Assembly: GCA_038256975.1 (NCBI GenBank)
Contig: JBBSJU010000001.1
Location: forward strand, 59,087 to 123,086
DNA length: 64,000 nt
Source of the DNA: Minisyncoccia bacterium
GTDB lineage: Bacteria > Patescibacteriota > Minisyncoccia > Phycocordibacterales > UBA5272
Direction of reading: 5' to 3'
Part shown: one piece after another, positions 1,247 to 52,662 of the stretch
Layout: each line of letters begins with the position of its first letter
How positions within the stretch are numbered: position 1 is the first letter of the stretch
The notes under the pieces: model-generated
Database searches by the model: none
Seen by the model: the letters and a program-made list of their open reading frames with translations, nothing else
What the model was told of the DNA's origin: nothing
Program-made: the position numbers and the translations under genes

Positions 1247-4200
1247 ATGAGTGAAAAATCAGAACTTGTTACACCAAAAAAGTCGATAGCCGAAAAGGAG
1301 CTCGACGTTCTACAGTTCTGGCAAGAAAACAAGATTTTTGAAAAAAGCCTTGAAAAACCAGGAGGAGCAATTGCCAAACAAAACTTCACTTTTTATGATG
1401 GCCCACCATTTGCAACCGGCGTACCGCACCATGGGCATCTTCTCACAGGGACAATTAAAGACCTTATTCCTCGTTACAAGACGATGCAAGGTGAGTATGT
1501 GCGTCGTGTGTGGGGTTGGGATTGTCATGGTTTGCCAATTGAAAATCTTATTGAGAAAGAGTTTAATTTGAATCACAAAAAAGAAATTGAAGAGTTTGGT
1601 TTGGGTAAGTTTAATCAAGCATGTTTCGAGAGAGTGCTTCTCTATGAAAAAGATTGGAAAAAAGTAGTTCCTCGTATGGGGCGATGGGTGGACATGGAGC
1701 GTGCATACAAAACAATGGACGCGACCTATACGGAGAGTATTTGGTGGTCATGGAAGCAATTGTATGAAAAAAAGTTGGCGTACGAGGGATATAAAATAAT
1801 GCAAATATGTCCACGTTGTGAGACGACACTTGCGCAGAGTGAAGTAGCCCAAGGATATAAAGATGTGACAGATATTTCAGTGACGGCAAAGTTTGAATTA
1901 GTTGACCCGTCTGCGCAGGCAGGTGAACCAGGAACTTTTTTACTTGCGTGGACAACAACACCGTGGACGCTTCCAGGGAATACTGCGCTTGCTCTTAATA
2001 CTGAGGCAATATATGCATACGTTCAGCATGAAGGTTCACTGTATGTTGTGGCAGAAGAAAGACTTGAAAATGTTTTCAAGGAGCTTATATATGAAAAAGT
2101 AAAAACAGTGAAAGGTAAAGATCTTGTTGGTAAATCATATAAACCAGTATTTCCTTACTACATAGATACTTCACTTGATAATAAAGAAAATATATATAAA
2201 GTGTGGGCGGGAGACTTTGTGACTTTAGATACAGGAACGGGAATTGTGCACATTGCCCCAGCTTTTGGAGCTGACGACATGAATCTTGCAAAGGTAAACA
2301 AAATCCCTGTTATTCAACATGTATCAATGAGTGGGCAATTTACTAAAGAAGTTATTGATTTTCCAGAATTGTATGTAAAAAAGTTTGGAGACACACAGTC
2401 AACGGATATCGAGATTGTAAAATATCTCGCGCATCAGGGCAAATTATTTGCAAAAGAAAAACTCGTTCACTCATACCCACACTGTTGGCGATGTGACACA
2501 CCCCTTTTAAACTACGCAACTTCTTCGTGGTTTGTGGATGTTCCAAAAATTAAAGACAAGCTTATTGAGGCAAACAAGGGAGTTACGTGGGTACCGGAAC
2601 ATATTAAAGAAGGTCGTTTTGGAAAGTGGCTCGAAAATGCACACGAATGGGCGGTGTCACGATCACGTTATTGGGGCGCACCTATTCCTGTGTGGAAGTC
2701 CGAAGATGGTGATGTAAAGGTTATTGGAAGTTTTGCAGAAATGCGTGAGTACATGCCGAAAGCGAAGAACATATATATGGGTCTTCGGCATGGAGAGGCA
2801 AATTCAAATGTTACAAACACTCTTGATTCACTTGATGATCAGGAAAATCATTTGACAGAAAAGGGTAAGGAACAGATTGTGGCTGCTGCTAAAGAGCTAA
2901 AGGGTTCTGGTGTCACTAAAATAATTTCCTCACCCTTCTTGCGAACTCAAGAAACAGCTCAAATCTTGAGTGATATTCTCGGGGTTTCTTTCGAGGTTGA
3001 TGACCGATTAAAGGAAATTAATGTAGGTGTTTGGAATCGAAAGACGATAACTGATTTGTACGCACAAAACCCTGAGTTTCAAGAGAATTTAGACTATGCA
3101 CCAGATGGGGGGGAAAGTCACAGAGATTCTCGGACTCGTGCGATGAAGGTTCTATTTGACTGCGAAAAGAAATATGAAGGAGAAACAATCTTGATCGTGA
3201 CTCATGGTGGACCAATCGGTATGCTTGTGACTGGCGCACAGCTTATGAGTGATACCGAAACGCATAATTTCTTTACCAAAGACTCTCATGCCGATAAGCA
3301 TGGAAGATGTCTTGGGCACGGTAAGGTATATGATATTAACTTCAAACCATTTCCAAATCGAAATGGCGTACTTGATGTGCACCGTCCGTTTATCGACGAG
3401 GTCAAACTTACTATTGATGGAAAAGAATACACACGAGTTCCGTATGTATTCGACTGCTGGTACGAGTCGGGGTCAATGCCATATGCTGAAATTCACTATC
3501 CGTTCGAAAATGAAGTGCTGTTTAAAAATAGGTTTCCTGCAGACTGGATTGGTGAAGGTTTAGATCAGACACGCGGATGGTTTTATTCTTTGATGGTTCT
3601 AGGTGTCGCCCTTTTTGACAAAGCTCCTTACAGAAATGTGATTGTAAATGGTCTTGTAATGGCTGCCGATGGGCAAAAGGTAAGTAAGAGCAAGAAAAAC
3701 TTCACTGACCCAATGGAACTCGTAGAAAGGTATGGCGCTGATAGTATGAGACTGTATTTGGTATCAAGCCCGCTTGTACAAGCAGAAAATTCAAATTTCG
3801 TAGACAAAGATTTAGAAGAAATGCATCGAAGAATATTTGTACGTCTTGAAAATGTACTTGCATTTTATGAGATGTTTAAGGGAACAACTAGTACTCGGAT
3901 AGATCCATACAAGTCTCAGAACATGCTTGATATGTGGATGTTAAGTAGACTCAATCAAACTTTGAGTCAGACAACGTCTGGACTTGATGCAAATATGCTT
4001 GATGTGGCATCGCGGCCTTTCGACGGTTTTATTGATGACCTTTCCGTTTGGTATGTGCGTCGAAGTCGAGAACGATTAAAGGGGGACACTGGTGAGGAGG
4101 ATAGAATTGCGGCACTTTCTACCTTTGAATATGTCTTGTTGCAATTTGCAAAAATGTTTGCGCCATTTGCACCATTTGTTTCAGAGCGAGTATACAAGGC

Positions 4201-13382: not shown

Positions 13383-13500
13383 TTTTAAAAACCCGAGTTA
13401 TATATGCACACGTTCTCGCTTTGCCAAGCGAGCCGTTCCGCTCGACAGAATTTTCTGCTGAAAATTCGTCTGTGCGAGGCATATGTAATTCGGGTTTTTA
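13383..13500 (+). repeat. structured repeat element, family B copy 1 (79-nt conserved core at 13404-13482 inside a long closing stem)
   Basis: Core ATGCACACGTTCTCGCTTTGC.AAGCGAGCCG.TCCGCTCGA..GAATTTTCT...GCGAGGCAT recurs at 45373-45450. Flanking stem here is TTTAAAAACCCGAGTTATAT / ATGTAATTCGGGTTTTTAAA. Confidence 0.5.
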
Positions 13501-13563
13501 AAGTTCGGGAAAAGTTGACATATATACACTTTCTCGGTATGAATATGTTAAACCTCGCACAGT

Positions 13564-13788
13564 GTGAGGAGCATGGAGTGGGTCATGATGGTTATTGTAG
13601 TGATTGTTAAGTTGGTACTCATGATTGTGGGTCTTTGGTTGCTGACCCTGTTTGGCATGATTACCGCCCCTAATCTGTATGAATACGGAGAGAGTGAGCT
13701 ATTTCCAAAGGCGGTAAAGATTGTGTTGAGAAGGTATTTACTCGGAGGAATCACGGCAATTTTTCTCGCCGTGTTTATCCCGTACTGA
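13564..13788 (+). CDS. small hypothetical membrane protein (2 TM)
   Basis: Own -35/-10 at ~13515-13545 (TTGACA-17-TATGAAT) and own intrinsic terminator downstream; 74 aa, hydrophobic. Confidence 0.35.
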   Translation: MRSMEWVMMVIVVIVKLVLMIVGLWLLTLFGMITAPNLYEYGESELFPKAVKIVLRRYLLGGITAIFLAVFIPY

Positions 13789-13809
13789 TTTTTCAAGTTC
13801 CGAAAGCTC

Positions 13810-13848
13810 GCAGTGCGGCTTTCGGGCTTTCGTTTTTTATAGAGACAC
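13810..13848 (+). terminator. intrinsic terminator
   Basis: CCGAAAGC..GCTTTCGG stem followed by a T-run. Confidence 0.5.
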
Positions 13849-24200: not shown

Positions 24201-24228
24201 ACCTCTTGCATATCTAGAGCGAATAATA

Positions 24229-24295
24229 GTTTTTCTTTGGGTGGGGGAAGGTCTGGCAAAGAAAAACTATTTGTGAGTGAAGGATTTGCAAGAGG
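24229..24295 (+). repeat. repeat element family A copy 1 (hairpin with G-rich loop plus tail)
   Basis: TTTTTCTTTG-GGTGGGGGAAGGTCTGG-CAAAGAAAAA...GTGAGTGAAGGATTTGCAAGAGG is ~88% identical to 26874-26938. Confidence 0.5.
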
Positions 24296-26820: not shown

Positions 26821-26873
26821 GTCCTCAGGGGTGTATACTTACTAGACTGACTGCATATTTAGAACGAACAACA

Positions 26874-26938
26874 TTTTTCTTTGAGTAGGGGAAGGTCTGG
26901 CAAAGAAAAATGTTTGTGAGTGAAGGATATGCAAGAGG
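26874..26938 (+). repeat. repeat element family A copy 2
   Basis: See 24229-24295; here it sits directly 5' of the next ORF, and its 3' end AAGAGG could serve as the RBS. Confidence 0.5.
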
Positions 26939-33878: not shown

Positions 33879-34673
33879 AGGCTCTATCACTCAAAAATGT
33901 TAAAAGAAAAACCAAACCAACCAAGCGCCTAACGATTCAAGTCTCTTGAGTTGTACCGCTTGCAAGAGCGGTTTTTCTTTTACTAAAAAAGTGGTGCGTT
34001 GTTTGACAATTCAATTCTGTTCCTCGGGTATTTATCCCAAAACAATTTGGGGTCTTTTCTCCCGAGGAAACAGGTTCATAAAAACAAAGTAAGAAGCATT
34101 ACAGATGAAAAAATAAAAGGTACATCTGTAATGAACATGTATACGTCTTGAGTGGTCAAGACAAGTACATTTGGTTTTTACATTTCCTAATAGGAATGTA
34201 TGGGCGTACGGTGGATGCCTTGGTTCTGACGAGCGATGAAGGACGTAGTCTGGCTGCGATAAGTTTCGGGGAGGTGCCAAACAACCTTTGATCCGGAAAT
34301 TTCCGAATGAGGAAACTCCATGTGAGTAATGTCATGTGATCCCGCAAGGGAAGCGAACCCGATGAAGTGAAACATCTCAGTAATCGGAGGAAAATAAACT
34401 AAACAAGTATTTCGTAAGTAGCGGCGAGCGAAAGCGAAGAAGCCCAAACCGTTTGTAGCAATACAGGCGGGGTTGTAGGGCAGAGATGTCAATTATGAGG
34501 AGAGTTACAAAACGTGTGTTTAAAAGAAGTGCCTGGAACGGCACGCCATAGATGGTGATAGCCCAGTATTTGAAAAACACATGTCTCTCTAGTCTCTGTT
34601 CCTGAGTAATTCTAGACACGAATAGCTAGGATGAATCCACCAGCACTAACTGGTAAGGCTAAATATTGTCAGA

Positions 34674-34715
<42 letters not shown>

Positions 34716-35406
34716 GTCCGAAAGGACAGTGAAATAGACCTGAACCCGTATGCCTACAAGGAGTCAGAGCGGATATTTATATCCGTCATGGCGTGCCTAT
34801 TGAAGAATGAGCCAACGAGTTTTTATGTGCAGCTGGCTAAGGAAGAGAAACTTCTGGAGCCACAGGGAAACCGAGTGTTAATAGCGCGAAATTATAGTTG
34901 CACATAAAAGACCCGAAGCCAGAAGAGCTTACCATGAGCAGGGTGAAGTATTTCGAAAGAAGTATGGAGGCCCGAACCCGTAGATCGTTCAACTTCTTGG
35001 GATGACTTGTGGTAAGGAGTGAAAAGCTAATCGATTCTGGTAATAGCTGGTTCTCTCCGAAATAGTTTTAGGACTAGCGTCGCGTGTTCCTCTGAGGGGT
35101 AGAGCACTGGAAGGGTTCAACAGGGAGCAATCTCGTGAACCCTATCAAACTCCGAATACTCAGTAGTCAAGAACGCGGCAGTAAGACCGTGGGGGCGAAG
35201 CTTCACAGGTCAAAAGGGAAACAGCCCTGATCTCCAGTTAAGGTCCCAAAGTATATGCTAAGTGCAAAGTGAGGAGGTGAAATTTCGTAGACAATGAGGA
35301 TGTTGGCTTAGAAGCAGCCATCATTGAAAGATAGCGTAACAGCTCACTCATCGAGAGATTTTGCGCCACAGATAATCGGGGCTCAAGCATATCACCGAAA
35401 CTGAGG

Positions 35407-35549
35407 GCTTGTAGATTTCATACAGGATTTTGTGTGACATAGTGTTAGTGGATAGCACGTCACAAAATAGTGGAGGCTTCCGTTCGATTCGGAACTCACA
35501 CAAATTCTGTCACAACTGCATAGTTGTGTCCTGTATGAAATCTATAAGC
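35407..35549 (+). other. ~140-nt intervening/expansion stem-loop in 23S at the helix-45 position
   Basis: GCTTGTAGATTTCATACAGG ... CCTGTATGAAATCTATAAGC is a 20-bp stem. It replaces the short E. coli hairpin GCGGCAGCGACGCUUAUGCGUUG between CACCGAAGCUG and GGUAGGGGAGCGUUC. Confidence 0.5.
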
Positions 35550-36305
35550 GGTAGGAGAGTGTTCCGCTCTGCGTTGAAGTAGAAGGGGTGACCCACTATG
35601 GAGCGTGCGGAAGTACAAATGTTGGCACAAGTAACCACAATGTGGGTGAGATCCCCACACGTCGAAAGAACAAGGTTTTCTTCGCCATGATAATCATCGA
35701 AGAGTTAGTCGGCCCTAAGGGAATGGCTCGCGCCGGACCCGATGGACAAAAGGTTAATATTCCTTTACTTCTTTATACAGCGATGGGAGGACGAAGGGCA
35801 GTAACATACGCATATCAATGGATTTGTGTTTGTATTGTGAGGGAGCATTCTAGGTAAATCCGGGTGCTGATTTAAATATCGATTCCAAGCAATGCATAAA
35901 CCGGCGGGGCAACCCAAAGGAATGTATGTGAGCGCGCTTCCAAGAAAAGTCTCTAGCTTCAACGATAATACCGTTGAAATCTCTTCTTTTTTCGCTCTTT
36001 ATTGAGTGAAATGAGAAGGGAAATATGTATAGTGAAACCGTACCGCAAACCGACACAGGTGTTCAGGTCGAGTAGACCAAGACGAACGAGTGATTGATCC
36101 CCAAGGAACTCGGCAAAAAAGCAGCCGTAAGTTAGCAATAAGGCTTGCCCGTAGCAATACGGGCCGCAGCGAAAGTTTCCCTGGCAACTGTTTACCAAAA
36201 ACACAGCTCCCTGCGAACTCGTAAGAGTATGTATAGGGGGTGACACCTGACCAATGCCAGAAGGTCAAATATCGGTGGTCGCAAGGCTGACTGATATAAG
36301 CCCTG

Positions 36306-36346
<41 letters not shown>

Positions 36347-37004
36347 GTTCCTTGTCTGGTAAGTTCAGACGCGCACGAATGGTGTAATGACTGGGGAACT
36401 GTCTCGGGGATTAGCTCGGTGAAAATACAATACCGGTGAAGATGCCGGTTACCTGCAGTTAGACGAAAAGACCCCAGGAGCTTTACTGCAACTTGATATT
36501 GAAAATACGTTTGTGATGCGTAGCATAGGTGGGAGAGGTTGAAGTCACGGTCTCGGCTGTGATGGACTCGAAATATGAAATACCACTCTTCAAACGGGTA
36601 TGCACTAACGTGTTTAAGAAAATTTTACGCAGACAGTATCTGGCGGGTAGTTTTACTGGGGCGGTACCCTCCTAAAGGGTAACGGAGGGGTTTATTAAGG
36701 TCAGTTAGGTGTGAATGGAAACCATACCGATAGTGTAAGGGCATAAACTGGCTTTACTGTAAGACGGGCATGTCAAGCAGTTGCGAAAGCAGAACCTAGT
36801 GAACCGATGGTTCGCATTAGACGCGACCGAAGATTAACGGATAGAAGCTACTCTGGGGATAACAGGCTAGTTCCGCCTAAGAGTTCATATCGACGGCGGA
36901 GTTCGGCACCTCGATGTCGGCTCATCTTATCCTGGTGGTGAAGAAGCTACCAAGGGTATGGCTGTTCGCCATTTAAAAAGATACGCGAGCTGGGTTCAAA
37001 CCGT

Positions 37005-37318
37005 AGAGGAGGTAATTGCAAAGACGTTCCAAGTTTTTGTAATTGGCTTCTCTTAGTTTGAACCCGAGGGTTAAGACTAAACTTAACAAAAAGACATCAA
37101 TCACGGCGGTGTGTTGTAGTGATACAACATGACAAGTCAACTAATATCGGGAAAATCCTATTCGTAGGACAATTCCGAGGGAACTTTATGCAAATAAAGA
37201 CCCGTAGAGACTATACGTTGGCACACTTACATAAAAAATAAGTGCAAGCTCTAGTCCGATCCCTTCAGTAATGAAGGTTCTTGCAACCGAGACCACGGCA
37301 AGATATAAAACTGAAATG
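37005..37318 (+). other. putative group I intron (~314 nt, no ORF) in 23S domain V
   Basis: Interrupts GGGTTCAAACCGT|...|CGTGAGACAGGTTGG (E. coli GGGUUUAGAACGUCGUGAGACAG). 5' exon ends in U and the insert ends in G. Internal AGACTAAA ... TAGTCC resembles the P7 GACUA/UAGUC pair. Confidence 0.55.
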
Positions 37319-37369
37319 CGTGAGACAGGTTGGTCTCCTATCTACTGCAGGCGTTGATATTTGAGGATA

Positions 37370-37401
<32 letters not shown>

Positions 37402-37922
37402 GAACCTCTGGTGTAAGGGCTCTGGCGCCAGCCGGACCGCCCTGTAGCTATGTTCGGAACGGATAACTTCTGAAAGCATCTAAGAAGGAAGCCGCATCCA
37501 AGATAAGATATCGTTATTAGGGTCGTAAGAGATGATTACGTTGATAGGCTTTAGGTGTAAGTGCAGTAATGCATTCAGCCGAGAAGTACTAATTACCCGA
37601 ATTCCTATTAGGAAATGTGAAAACCAATGTCAGATAAATTGTTTTAAATGAAAAGAAGGGAGGGTCCGCCCTCCACACAAGGTGTATGTGCAGACTTTGT
37701 GTGGAGGGCGGAAGAAGCGAAGGTTTTACTGTTTGCTTGTCGATGTCCGTATTCCTAGGCTTCTATGCCGCGAGGAAAAGGTCTTCTGATGACAACCATT
37801 GTCAGTAAAAACGAGCATGCCTCCTTCAGGGACTGGTGTTCCGTACGAGACTCCGCCATGTGCGTATGTCTCTCGGTCGGGTGTAAGCTCAACACCAGTC
37901 ACCCCCTTCTTTGTTCTTTGTG

Positions 37923-37998
37923 TGGGGCCGTAGCTCAGTTGCGAGAGCGTCCGCATCGCATGCGGAAGGTCATGGGTTCAATCCCCATCGGCTCCACC
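37923..37998 (+). tRNA. tRNA-Ala (anticodon CGC), CCA encoded
   Basis: GGGGCCGTAGCTCAGTTG...; G3:U70 identity pair; anticodon loop AUCGCAU; T-arm GGTTCAATCC. Confidence 0.85.
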
Positions 37999-38022
37999 AC
38001 CCAAATCTTGATTTTATGAATA

Positions 38023-38099
38023 GGGAGACGTAGCTCAACACTTAGAGCGCATGTGGCGTTCCCACGTGAGGGTTGAGGGTGAAAATCCCTTCGTCTCCT
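38023..38099 (+). ncRNA. tRNA-like element (possible degenerate tRNA; nominal anticodon GUU)
   Basis: Cloverleaf possible: acceptor GGAGACG/CGTCTCC, D-arm GCTC..GAGC. But the anticodon loop GCGUUCC lacks U33 and a purine at 37, and the T-loop UGAAAAU lacks T-Psi-C. Confidence 0.3.
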
Positions 38100-38145
38100 T
38101 CATATAGTACAGTCAAGTACTTTTCTTTGAGTGTATGTTGAATGT

Positions 38146-38262
38146 TCTGTCTTGGTGGTTTGTCACGGTGGAAACACCTCTTCCCATTCCGAACAGAGTC
38201 GTTAAGCACCGCTGAACCGATGATAGTCCTTCGGGGCAAAAGTAGGTTGCTGCCAAGACAGA
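38146..38262 (+). rRNA. rrf: 5S ribosomal RNA
   Basis: TCTGTCTTGGTGG...CCCATTCCGAACAGAGTCGTTAAGCACCGCTGAACCGATGATAGT...CTGCCAAGACAGA; helix I pairs the two ends. Confidence 0.85.
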
Positions 38263-45275: not shown

Positions 45276-45305
45276 TTGACAAGTATCGTATATCCATGTT
45301 ATAAT
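45276..45305 (+). promoter_or_regulatory. consensus sigma70-type promoter
   Basis: TTGACA - 18 nt - TATAAT. Confidence 0.5.
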
Positions 45306-45332
45306 ACAAGAAGTCAAAAAGCTCTTTAAAAC

Positions 45333-45505
45333 AAGGTTTGCCCTAGCTTTAAGTACTCAAACTCCGCAGGAACACAAAGGAAATGCACACGTTCTCGCTT
45401 TGCAAAGCGAGCCGCTCCGCTCGATGAATTTTCTACTAAAAATTCATCTGCGCGAGGCATTTCCTTTGTGTCTTGCTTCGTTTCAGTTTTGAATGTTTAA
45501 AGCTA
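45333..45505 (+). repeat. structured repeat element family B copy 2 (78-nt core at 45373-45450 nested in two closing stems)
   Basis: Core is near-identical to 13404-13482. Inner stem CACAAAGGAA/TTCCTTTGTG; outer stem AAGGTTTGCCCTAGCTTTAA/TTAAAGCTATGGCAAACCT. Confidence 0.5.
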
Positions 45506-45575
45506 TGGCAAACCTGCAAGATTGCAGTTTAGGTCCGCTAGCAGAAGCACACGTGCTTCAAAATGGAGAAAAGAC

Positions 45576-46229
45576 ATGTCTTATTCTTTCGAACAAGTCG
45601 CCCAACTCGTCAACAAATTGAAAAAGATGGGTTGGGGCCCCGAGTGTGTCACGGCACTCGGACAAGCCGACACTCGAAAGTTCCGTGCCATCGAGACGAT
45701 TCTCGAGGGCAAGACCCTCGAGGAAGCAATCAAAGCTGCCGTCGCGATGAAAGTGGATGTGCTCGCCGATGACACTTCCCACTTGCGCTTTCTCGAATCG
45801 GTGGAGCTCGCCCCGACTTCAGGCAAGGTGACACTTGCTCAGTCGAGCGACATTTTTAACGTGGACCTCAACTTCAAGAATTGGGGCACCGATAAGTCGG
45901 GAAGCGATACTCAGGGACAAACGGCACTGATCTACGAGATGAAGAAAGACGGCACTTTCGTCGCTCTCTTCAACTCGTTCGGAGCCGACCTCTCGAGCCT
46001 TGTGTGGCAACAAGGTCAGATTCGTGAGTTCTGTGCTTCGCACCGCCACCTTCTCTGTCAGGATGGTTACGGCACTTTCTTCCTCTTCGAGGTCGACAAG
46101 AAGCTGTTCGTTGCCGACGTGATCGTGGGTGGCGGCAGGCTCTGCGCCGATGTCCGCCGCGTTTCGGACGACGGCGTCTGGGGTGCCGCCTTTCGTCGTC
46201 GGTTGGTGGTACCGCAACAGACCATTTGA
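45576..46229 (+). CDS. hypothetical protein encoded in a GC-rich (~57% GC) islet
   Basis: GGAG 7 nt upstream of ATG; 217 aa with no recognisable domain. Long antisense ORFs overlapping it are attributed to the high GC. Confidence 0.5.
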   Translation: MSYSFEQVAQLVNKLKKMGWGPECVTALGQADTRKFRAIETILEGKTLEEAIKAAVAMKVDVLADDTSHLRFLESVELAPTSGKVTLAQSSDIFNVDLNFKNWGTDKSGSDTQGQTALIYEMKKDGTFVALFNSFGADLSSLVWQQGQIREFCASHRHLLCQDGYGTFFLFEVDKKLFVADVIVGGGRLCADVRRVSDDGVWGAAFRRRLVVPQQTI

Positions 46230-46257
46230 TTTTTTGCTCTAAACCTTTGAATCTTTG

Positions 46258-46306
46258 TCCCTTGGACCCTTTCGATTTGTTTCGGAAGGGTCCAAGGGAT
46301 TTTTTG
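46258..46306 (+). terminator. strong intrinsic terminator
   Basis: GTCCCTTGGACCCTT tcgatttgtttcgg AAGGGTCCAAGGGATTTTTTG. Confidence 0.7.
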
Positions 46307-46484
46307 TATACTGTATACGCATGAAGAAAATGATGCGGAATGTCTCCGAGAAAAATGTTGCTTCCTACAAAGGGATGTTGGGGTGGGGGAATGGGTGGGG
46401 GTTGGAGCAGGTGCTTGAAAAAGCAACGCTGGGGGATCTTTTATAGACTTGTGTTTTTGTGGTTTTTGTGTAATTATATGCCCC

Positions 46485-52553: not shown

Positions 52554-52662
52554 GATTGTAATTATGAATTATTTTTTGTAAACCCGTCACTCATAAGTAG
52601 TTTTTCTCTGCCAGACCTTACCCTACCCAAAGAAAAACTACTTATTCGTTTTTTGCATACTA

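Follow-up and report, generated by a model that had tools for sequence, protein, structure and literature searches.

Two copies of a conserved, structured core, here called Family B, are present in the 64-kb stretch of DNA that was analysed (the window). Each core forms the tip of a long closing stem that differs in sequence between the copies, and each lies in an untranslated region. Our analysis indicates that Family B is a real, non-random structured element under selective constraint, most likely representing a small RNA family not described so far, whose architecture resembles that of the intervening sequences (IVS) of 23S rRNA. The reading that we tentatively favour is that of a lineage-specific structured RNA of a Patescibacteria clade that lies in untranslated regions and is probably set free when RNase III cuts its long stems.

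Two copies share a core in unrelated arms

The original prediction of a core conserved in two copies was correct: both were found in the sequence, differing by seven substitutions and one 1-nt indel (Table 1). Two of its details needed correction. Copy 2, placed at 45373-45450, does exist, but these coordinates are 10 nt too low, and positions 45373-45382 are in fact the inner 5′ arm. The site described as a CA/TG difference is indeed variable, but it represents a C-to-T change plus the loss of a bulged A. When the window was searched with 25 nt of the core, allowing up to three mismatches, exactly two sites matched, compared with none expected from 100 shuffles. A covariance model applied to the whole window with filters off also recovered only the two known copies, with none in the 23S gene (34188-37612).

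Comparison of the two copies revealed that their similarity ends at the core edges, and the copies are therefore not a segmental duplication, as had been argued beforehand. The arms of copies 1 and 2 are unrelated in sequence, yet they are complementary within each copy. Both copies are on the sense strand within transcription units. Copy 1 begins 4 nt past the tatD stop codon, in the 3′ untranslated region of tatD, and is followed by a 67-aa membrane ORF and then by a VirD4-like gene. Copy 2 is located in the 5′ leader of a 217-aa DGR target gene, approximately 28 nt past a promoter with 12/12 matches; the encoded protein has a 100% identical NCBI entry, and its named homologue comes from "Patescibacteria group". 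The window derives from a Patescibacteria (candidate phyla radiation) MAG. Its genes are housekeeping genes, and no transposase or integrase was found among those of the 64 kb. Near the Family B copies, we found no candidate partner protein, and neither copy has a separate promoter or terminator delimiting an RNA gene. The possibility of a peptide-coding core was considered and rejected. Although an ATG opens the core on either strand, neither reading frame survives the 1-nt indel, and copy 2 carries an early in-frame stop.

Table 1 Features of the two Family B copies and their surroundings in the window
Feature	Position	Strand	Remarks
Copy 1 5′ arm of P1, TTTAAAAACCCGAGTTATAT	13384-13403	+	Pairs with 13483-13502; covaries with L011
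Family B core 1	13404-13482	+	79 nt; closing pairs AUGC/GCAU, hairpins P2 and P3
Copy 1 3′ arm of P1, ATGTAATTCGGGTTTTTAAA	13483-13502	+	T-run gives terminator-like look
Promoter-like site TTGACA, 17 nt, TATGAA	13515-13543	+	Small-gene cassette, just 3′ of copy 1
Small hydrophobic ORF, 67 aa	13585-13788	+	In the variable cassette carrying copy 1
Conserved intrinsic terminator CCGAAAGC...GCTTTCGG with T-run	13799-13826	+	Directly after tatD in L015
Perfect sigma-70-type promoter TTGACA, 18 nt, TATAAT	45276-45305	+	TG before second hexamer; 12/12 matches; drives transcript with copy 2
Copy 2 5′ arms	45333-45382	+	Outer stem 45333-45352, middle imperfect stem, inner perfect stem 45373-45382
Family B core 2	45383-45460	+	78 nt
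Copy 2 3′ arms	45461-45515	+	Inner 45461-45470; outer 45497-45515 (TTAAAGCTATGGCAAACCT)
Small conserved leader hairpin GAAGCACACGTGCTTC	45544-45559	+	Just 5′ of ribosome-binding site; part of the gene's leader and not of the repeat
217-aa gene, DGR target	45576-46229	+	Variable repeat at about 46104-46222

Arms and core are gained or lost together at the tatD site

We compared the tatD site across syntenic loci retrieved through TatD homologues at 77-89% identity. The Family B unit was present in 2 of 7 relative lineages, namely in the window and, at the identical site, in L011-L014 (TatD identity 89%). It was absent from L015 (88%), where the tatD stop codon is followed by the terminator CCGAAAGC...GCTTTCGG and its T-run, and from L038 (89%), L016 (77%) and L020/L021 (79%), all of which have a short spacer. 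In L017/L018 (79%), the promoter and leader are homologous to those of the window and precede a different 88-aa ORF, and both arms and core are missing. Given its absence from sisters at 88-89% TatD identity, the unit is dispensable there.

Once positions 13384-13502 are removed, the window and L017 are collinear over the interval between the end of tatD and the start codon, which defines a 119-nt indel; arms and core were therefore gained or lost together as one 119-nt unit. Because the empty-site relatives lack both arms and core, the arms belong to the unit and not to an older tatD terminator. The proposal that copy 1 had inserted into a tatD terminator formed by its CCCGAG/TTCGGG arms is not supported: the coreless L017, L015, L038, L016 and L020 lack these arms as well, and the terminator that is conserved across relatives is the separate hairpin downstream (Table 1). 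From two paralogues alone, insertion into a terminator and a hairpin that moves as a unit look alike, and only empty-site relatives separate them. The copy 1 stalk, whose loop is 79 nt, is followed by TTTTTAAA in the window and by TTTATTA in L011, and the T-run is absent at copy 2. No unambiguous direct repeat was found at the indel borders defined by L017, which are AT-rich and palindromic (TTTAA).

Copy 1 belongs to a variable cassette of approximately 415 nt between tatD and the conserved terminator, composed of the hairpin unit, the promoter-like site, a leader hairpin and a small ORF. The promoter-like site was read from the sequence and has counterparts in L011 and L017; it falls under the threshold of the consensus scan. 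Beyond the unit, the promoter and leader are homologous among the window (13503-13797), L011 (8620-8905) and L017 (10813-11170), following the pattern AAGTTGACA...ACTTT...hairpin...GGAG. The ORFs of the cassette differ: those of the window (67 aa) and L011 (68 aa) are two-helix hydrophobic proteins, and the L017 ORF (88 aa) is basic, cysteine-rich and unrelated to either. The small-gene cassette is absent from L015, L038, L016 and L020.

The 3′ part of core 1, GTGCGAGG (13476-13483), and the 5′ half of the leader hairpin, CCTCGCAC (13553-13560), are perfect complements. We considered and rejected the idea that the core pairs with the downstream leader as an antisense RNA, in the manner of a type I toxin-antitoxin system. 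Pairing of GUGCGAGG with CCUCGCAC gave p ~0.007 against shuffles for copy 1 of the window, but it was not conserved, with values of 0.83 for the L011 orthologue and 0.43 for copy 2.

The core evolves more than ten times more slowly than synonymous sites

Core 1 of the window and its L011 orthologue differ at 3 of 79 positions (96% identity). Between the same two genomes, divergence at four-fold degenerate sites in tatD, metG, the VirD4-like gene and ndk amounts to 42-47%, and the probability of such core conservation under neutrality is approximately 5 × 10−16 (3/79 against a four-fold divergence of 44%). The core has thus evolved more than 10 times more slowly than synonymous sites. Identity in the surrounding parts of the cassette was 65-71% for the arms, 72% for the promoter and leader, and 62% for the small ORF. 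Judged by sequence comparison, the core is an island of strong purifying selection in a cassette drifting near the neutral rate.

One predicted fold accommodates all copies

A single predicted three-way-junction fold accommodates all copies. Its P1 is the long closing stem, of which the last four pairs (AUGC/GCAU) are conserved, and of the three junction strands one is ACA and the other two have 0 nt, leaving three unpaired nucleotides in total. P2 consists of CG, an internal loop and then CUCGCUU-UGCM-AAGCGAG, with the loop UGCC in copy 1. P3 has a bulged base below GAAUUUUC-loop-GAAAAUUC, with the loop UGCU in copy 1. At the DNA level, the core contains two perfect inverted repeats, CTCGCTT/AAGCGAG and GAATTTTC/GAAAATTC. 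In the predicted folds, P1 of copy 1 pairs 13384-13403 with 13483-13502, and copy 2 pairs 45373-45382 with 45461-45470 and, in its outer stem, 45333-45352 with 45497-45515. The stalks measure 18-24 bp, or 50 bp with bulges. The predicted folding energy was −54 kcal/mol for copy 1 (z = −9.5 against shuffles) and −84 kcal/mol for copy 2 (z = −11).

Pairing was evaluated in an alignment of the three complete copies, that is, copies 1 and 2 of the window and the L011 orthologue. In this alignment, 99% of cells were paired, compared with 31-52% in slid registers, and nine pairs were altered on both sides, including 8 of the 14 in P1. None of 500 shuffles reached the observed value in any of five pairing measures. 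P2 is invariant in the three copies and so shows no covariation, and the covariation in P3 amounts to one double change. The differences between cores 1 and 2 are all compatible with the fold, comprising one C-G to U-A double change in P3 and two G-C to G·U changes, with the rest located in loops or consisting of the lost bulged A. The expectation of a conserved, structured core within a variable but compensatory closing stem was upheld by L011, where the core is nearly unchanged and the changed arms still pair.

Long palindromes can be re-perfected when the template switches within the strand, and covariation in the arms alone is therefore no proof of RNA-level function. Copy 1 folds at −56.6 kcal/mol on the sense strand and at −50.6 kcal/mol on the other strand, and the two strands are equal for the other two copies; across the three copies, neither wobble pairs nor folding energy gave a consistent strand preference. 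A hairpin acting at the DNA level would remain compatible with the strand-equal folding energies predicted for two copies.

Copy 2 occupies the tip of an older leader hairpin

We next consider copy 2 and its host gene. Its orthologue in L002 and L003 (86% protein identity) retains the last 10 core nucleotides (CGCAAGGCAT); the 3′ arm has diverged, and the contigs break there, as is expected for arms that exceed the assembly k-mer. In the distant homologues L004, L009 and L010, the leader is laid out as in the window and the core is absent. The outer stem of copy 2 in the window (…AAGCTATGGCAAACCT) is homologous to the L004 stem. As the coreless homologues share this outer leader hairpin, copy 2 and its inner arms occupy the tip of an older hairpin. 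For copy 2, the suggested insertion into a pre-existing palindrome is thus supported for the outer stem, which is the older leader hairpin, but not for the inner arms, which are specific to the unit. Coreless homologous leaders keep hairpins of 16-24 bp at the same place, so the stalk tip is a tolerated position.

The shared leader plan consists of a strong promoter, a variable hairpin of 16-24 bp, a small palindromic hairpin (GCACAYGTGC) and a ribosome-binding site, and it spans 45312-45575 in the window, 9895-10000 in L004, 2510-2650 in L009 and 4805-4940 in L010. The DGR-target leader may itself serve in cis regulation or in processing. A further hairpin was observed in L004 (9788-9848), and likewise in L005-L007, where it separates a terminator from the promoter of the DGR-target homologue. 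It is a perfect 22-bp hairpin with a GC content of 75% in an otherwise low-GC genome and has a 30-nt centre (GGCCTCACCCACCTCGGCGGCG...CGCCGCCGAGGTGGGTGAGGCC), and it may be another nested-hairpin element.

In L002 (1-2613), a template repeat, a bAvd gene and a reverse transcriptase gene lie directly downstream of the target gene, and the 3′ end of that gene (654-772) matches the template repeat (1093-1210) at 86%. Relative to L002, the window has lost approximately 1.6 kb containing the template repeat, bAvd and the reverse transcriptase. A remnant of the reverse transcriptase, 39 codons of its 3′ end, persists at 46324-46440, about 860 nt downstream of copy 2, and the DGR of the window (45576-46440) is a decayed one. 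We rejected the idea that Family B is part of the DGR: the surroundings of copy 1 contain no DGR, the core is missing from homologous DGR target genes, and it lies outside the template repeat, the variable repeat and the accessory region. A DGR accessory element should adjoin the 3′ side of the variable repeat, whereas copy 2 lies approximately 650 nt 5′ of 46104-46222.

Family B has no match among known families

We searched for Family B among known RNA families and for further copies. At the gathering threshold, Rfam returned only rRNA and tRNA over the whole window. A permissive search of 300 nt around each copy (Rfam 15, E up to 10) yielded only chance-level matches to unrelated families, eukaryotic or other, at 12-20 bits compared with thresholds of 46-70. 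The models covered included those of hammerhead, twister, twister-sister, pistol, hatchet and HDV-like ribozymes, group II domains V-VI, riboswitches, Y RNA, 6S and SRP. An exact-pattern scan of GTDB genomes gave one chance match, inside a Pyrinomonadaceae coding sequence. In JGI metagenomes, a first pattern gave no match and a second gave 16 chance matches on high-GC contigs, all rejected by the covariance model. Four patterns searched in IMG/VR produced one chance match in a coding region, and BLAST against phages and plasmids returned nothing meaningful.

A covariance-model search had been proposed as a way to collect more copies. Applied to approximately 280 kb of relatives' loci, it did recover the tatD-site orthologue, but no others. 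Three complete copies were thus found, from two related genomes, and in the collections and loci searched Family B was not seen beyond the window species and one sister species. Literature searches returned no account of such an element from Patescibacteria.

Other features of the window

A second repeat family, probably the one designated Family A in the original prediction, occurs in the window at 24214-24295 (+), 26860-26938 (+) and 52589-52650 (−), and in L002 at 3310-3378. It forms a nested hairpin with the conserved centre TTTTTCTTTGGGTRGGGKAAGGTCTGGCARAGAAAAA, and the adjoining stem compensates (ATAG/CTAT, ACAT/ATGT, GTAG/CTAC). All three window copies lie just past a stop codon in sense orientation, with approximately 90% identity in the sister species. 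This family had no Rfam match. The 23S rRNA gene (34188-37612) measures 3425 nt against a model of 2925 positions, corresponding to an insertion of approximately 500 nt. In the rRNA region (34188-38258), two tRNA genes lie between 23S and 5S, and the window contains no 16S gene.

A released small RNA as the favoured reading

In the mechanism that we propose, a Family B unit is one long hairpin carrying a three-way junction of 78-79 nt as its tip. The sequence of the tip is under strong purifying selection, and the stalk of 18-50 bp would merely have to stay paired. The unit would be transcribed within its host mRNAs, in the 3′ untranslated region of tatD and the 5′ leader of the DGR target gene. 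RNase III would then cut the double-stranded stalk, by analogy with rRNA processing stems and 23S intervening sequences, and cleavage would free the conserved core as a discrete small RNA of approximately 80-140 nt. The freed RNA may act in trans through specific recognition of a partner, most likely by binding a protein; the near-total sequence constraint is what suggests specific recognition. We infer release by RNase III because a conserved interior with fast, compensating flanks resembles stable RNAs with processing stems, and because the helix-tip position, stems of at least 20 bp and sporadic distribution parallel those of 23S rRNA IVS.

In helix 45 of the Coxiella burnetii 23S rRNA, RNase III cuts an IVS with a stem of 28 bp (PMC4990558); in length, the Family B stalks resemble RNase III substrates of this kind. 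Like 23S rRNA IVS, Family B is an extra stem-loop at the tip of an existing helix, has complementary termini of 20-28 bp or more, occurs sporadically among close relatives and is inherited vertically after acquisition. Excision by RNase III has been demonstrated for IVS and would be expected for Family B by this likeness. The two differ in that IVS reside in rRNA helices 25 or 45, measure 100-450 nt and have a weakly conserved interior that is degraded after excision, whereas Family B is hosted by mRNA untranslated regions, outside 23S rRNA, and its 79-nt interior is its most conserved part.

The precursor processing stems of rRNA and tRNA offer a second parallel, with a conserved RNA flanked by complements that drift fast and still pair. 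In contrast to these RNAs, the Family B core matches no known stable RNA, lacks its own promoter and is confined to part of the clade. A third comparison is with retrons. The retron non-coding RNA (msr-msd) has flanking a1/a2 repeats, and the retron reverse transcriptase gene lies immediately downstream. Family B likewise has variable flanking inverted repeats that close a multi-hairpin RNA, but no retron reverse transcriptase adjoins it; the nearby remnant is of DGR type, and homologous DGR loci are coreless.

Alternative explanations

A possible, though doubtful, alternative is that Family B is a selfish non-autonomous mobile element. Its core would then be the part recognised by a transposase, recombinase or reverse transcriptase that is encoded elsewhere, and copies would survive at hairpin tips and in untranslated regions because insertions are tolerated there. 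Such an element would account for the patchy distribution at the tatD site, with the window and L011 occupied and L015, L038, L016, L020 and L017 empty, for the clean 119-nt indel relative to L017 and for the presence of more than one copy in a genome. It would also fit the position of copy 2 at the tip of an older hairpin and the intact DGR reverse transcriptase that adjoins the copy 2 orthologue in a relative. However, transposase-dependent elements keep their ends conserved, whereas the termini of Family B, its arms, are unrelated between copies, and no clear target-site duplication was seen. The window contains no transposase or integrase, and its sole reverse transcriptase is a 3′ remnant. 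Moreover, copy 1 is orthologous in two lineages with arms approximately 30% diverged and a core 96% identical, which points to long-term selection on a resident copy and away from recent spread, and no extra copies were found in approximately 280 kb of relatives' DNA or in public collections.

Known short repeats differ from Family B in the same respect. In REP/BIME, ERIC, Correia and RUP-type MITEs, the arms or terminal inverted repeats are conserved and the centre varies, and these elements usually have target duplications and tens to hundreds of copies. They share with Family B a short, non-coding and multi-copy nature, an untranslated or intergenic location, RNA hairpins and a possible effect on mRNA fate. 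Family B, by contrast, has a conserved centre and arms that bear no relation from copy to copy, with only two copies in 64 kb. Family B therefore lacks the conserved terminal inverted repeats of MITEs, and it departs from REP/REPIN elements in its variable arms and conserved centre; a RAYT transposase was not found in the window.

It is unlikely that Family B is a purely cis-acting RNA, that is, a terminator or insulator after tatD, an RNase III stability site or an exonuclease barrier with no function in trans. The sense orientation of both copies in untranslated regions, the T-run after the copy 1 stalk in the window, the long coreless hairpins at the same place in related leaders, and the second repeat family, which is likewise sense-oriented just past stop codons, are all consistent with such a role. 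However, a terminator or stability hairpin does not require 96% conservation over 79 nt, loops included. The T-run is degraded to TTTATTA in L011, a conserved terminator already exists at 13799-13826, and the two copies occupy opposite contexts, one in a 3′ and the other in a 5′ untranslated region.

A broader version of the favoured reading, which we consider quite unlikely as a whole, is that Family B is the first example of a new class of small, highly constrained Patescibacteria RNAs: a passenger of stalk tips, released by RNase III and functioning as a ribonucleoprotein or a catalyst. Such an RNA might spread between hairpin tips through a resident reverse transcriptase, for example the DGR enzyme that adjoins the copy 2 orthologue.

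We regard as very improbable a site acting at the DNA level, where a protein such as a regulator or recombinase would bind the duplex or a cruciform, or where a single-strand initiation or transfer signal would lie near the VirD4-like gene. In favour of such a site, two of the three copies fold equally well on either strand, two perfect palindromes are present in the core, and copy 1 lies approximately 400 nt upstream of the coupling-protein-like gene. Nevertheless, synteny of the VirD4-like gene holds across all relatives, including the majority without the element, and both copies share the orientation of transcription. The C-G to U-A swap, the G·U wobbles and the fast compensatory arms also fit pairing better than half-site recognition.

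Least probable of all is the ligand-sensing riboswitch or self-cleaving ribozyme with a variable P1 suggested by the original prediction: despite a three-way junction, a conserved sequence, a variable closing stem and the position of copy 2 in a 5′ leader, even a search at E up to 10 returned no match to an Rfam ribozyme or riboswitch model, the junction is nearly devoid of unpaired nucleotides (ACA only), a P1 of 20-50 bp cannot switch, in place of the short competing P1 of riboswitches, and copy 1 lies upstream of the next gene's promoter and not in a leader, with unrelated genes downstream of the copies where riboswitches consistently occupy the 5′ leaders of related genes; for a hammerhead in particular, the core motifs (CUGAUGA, GAAA) are not common to both copies, CGAUGAA of copy 2 corresponding to CGACAGAA in copy 1.

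Significance

Patescibacteria have tiny genomes, few repeats and few described regulatory RNAs, and the Family B core is a strong candidate for a functional RNA that has no match in Rfam 15. If it is released by RNase III, the architecture known from intervening sequences and processing stems would also serve to deliver small RNAs from the untranslated regions of mRNAs.
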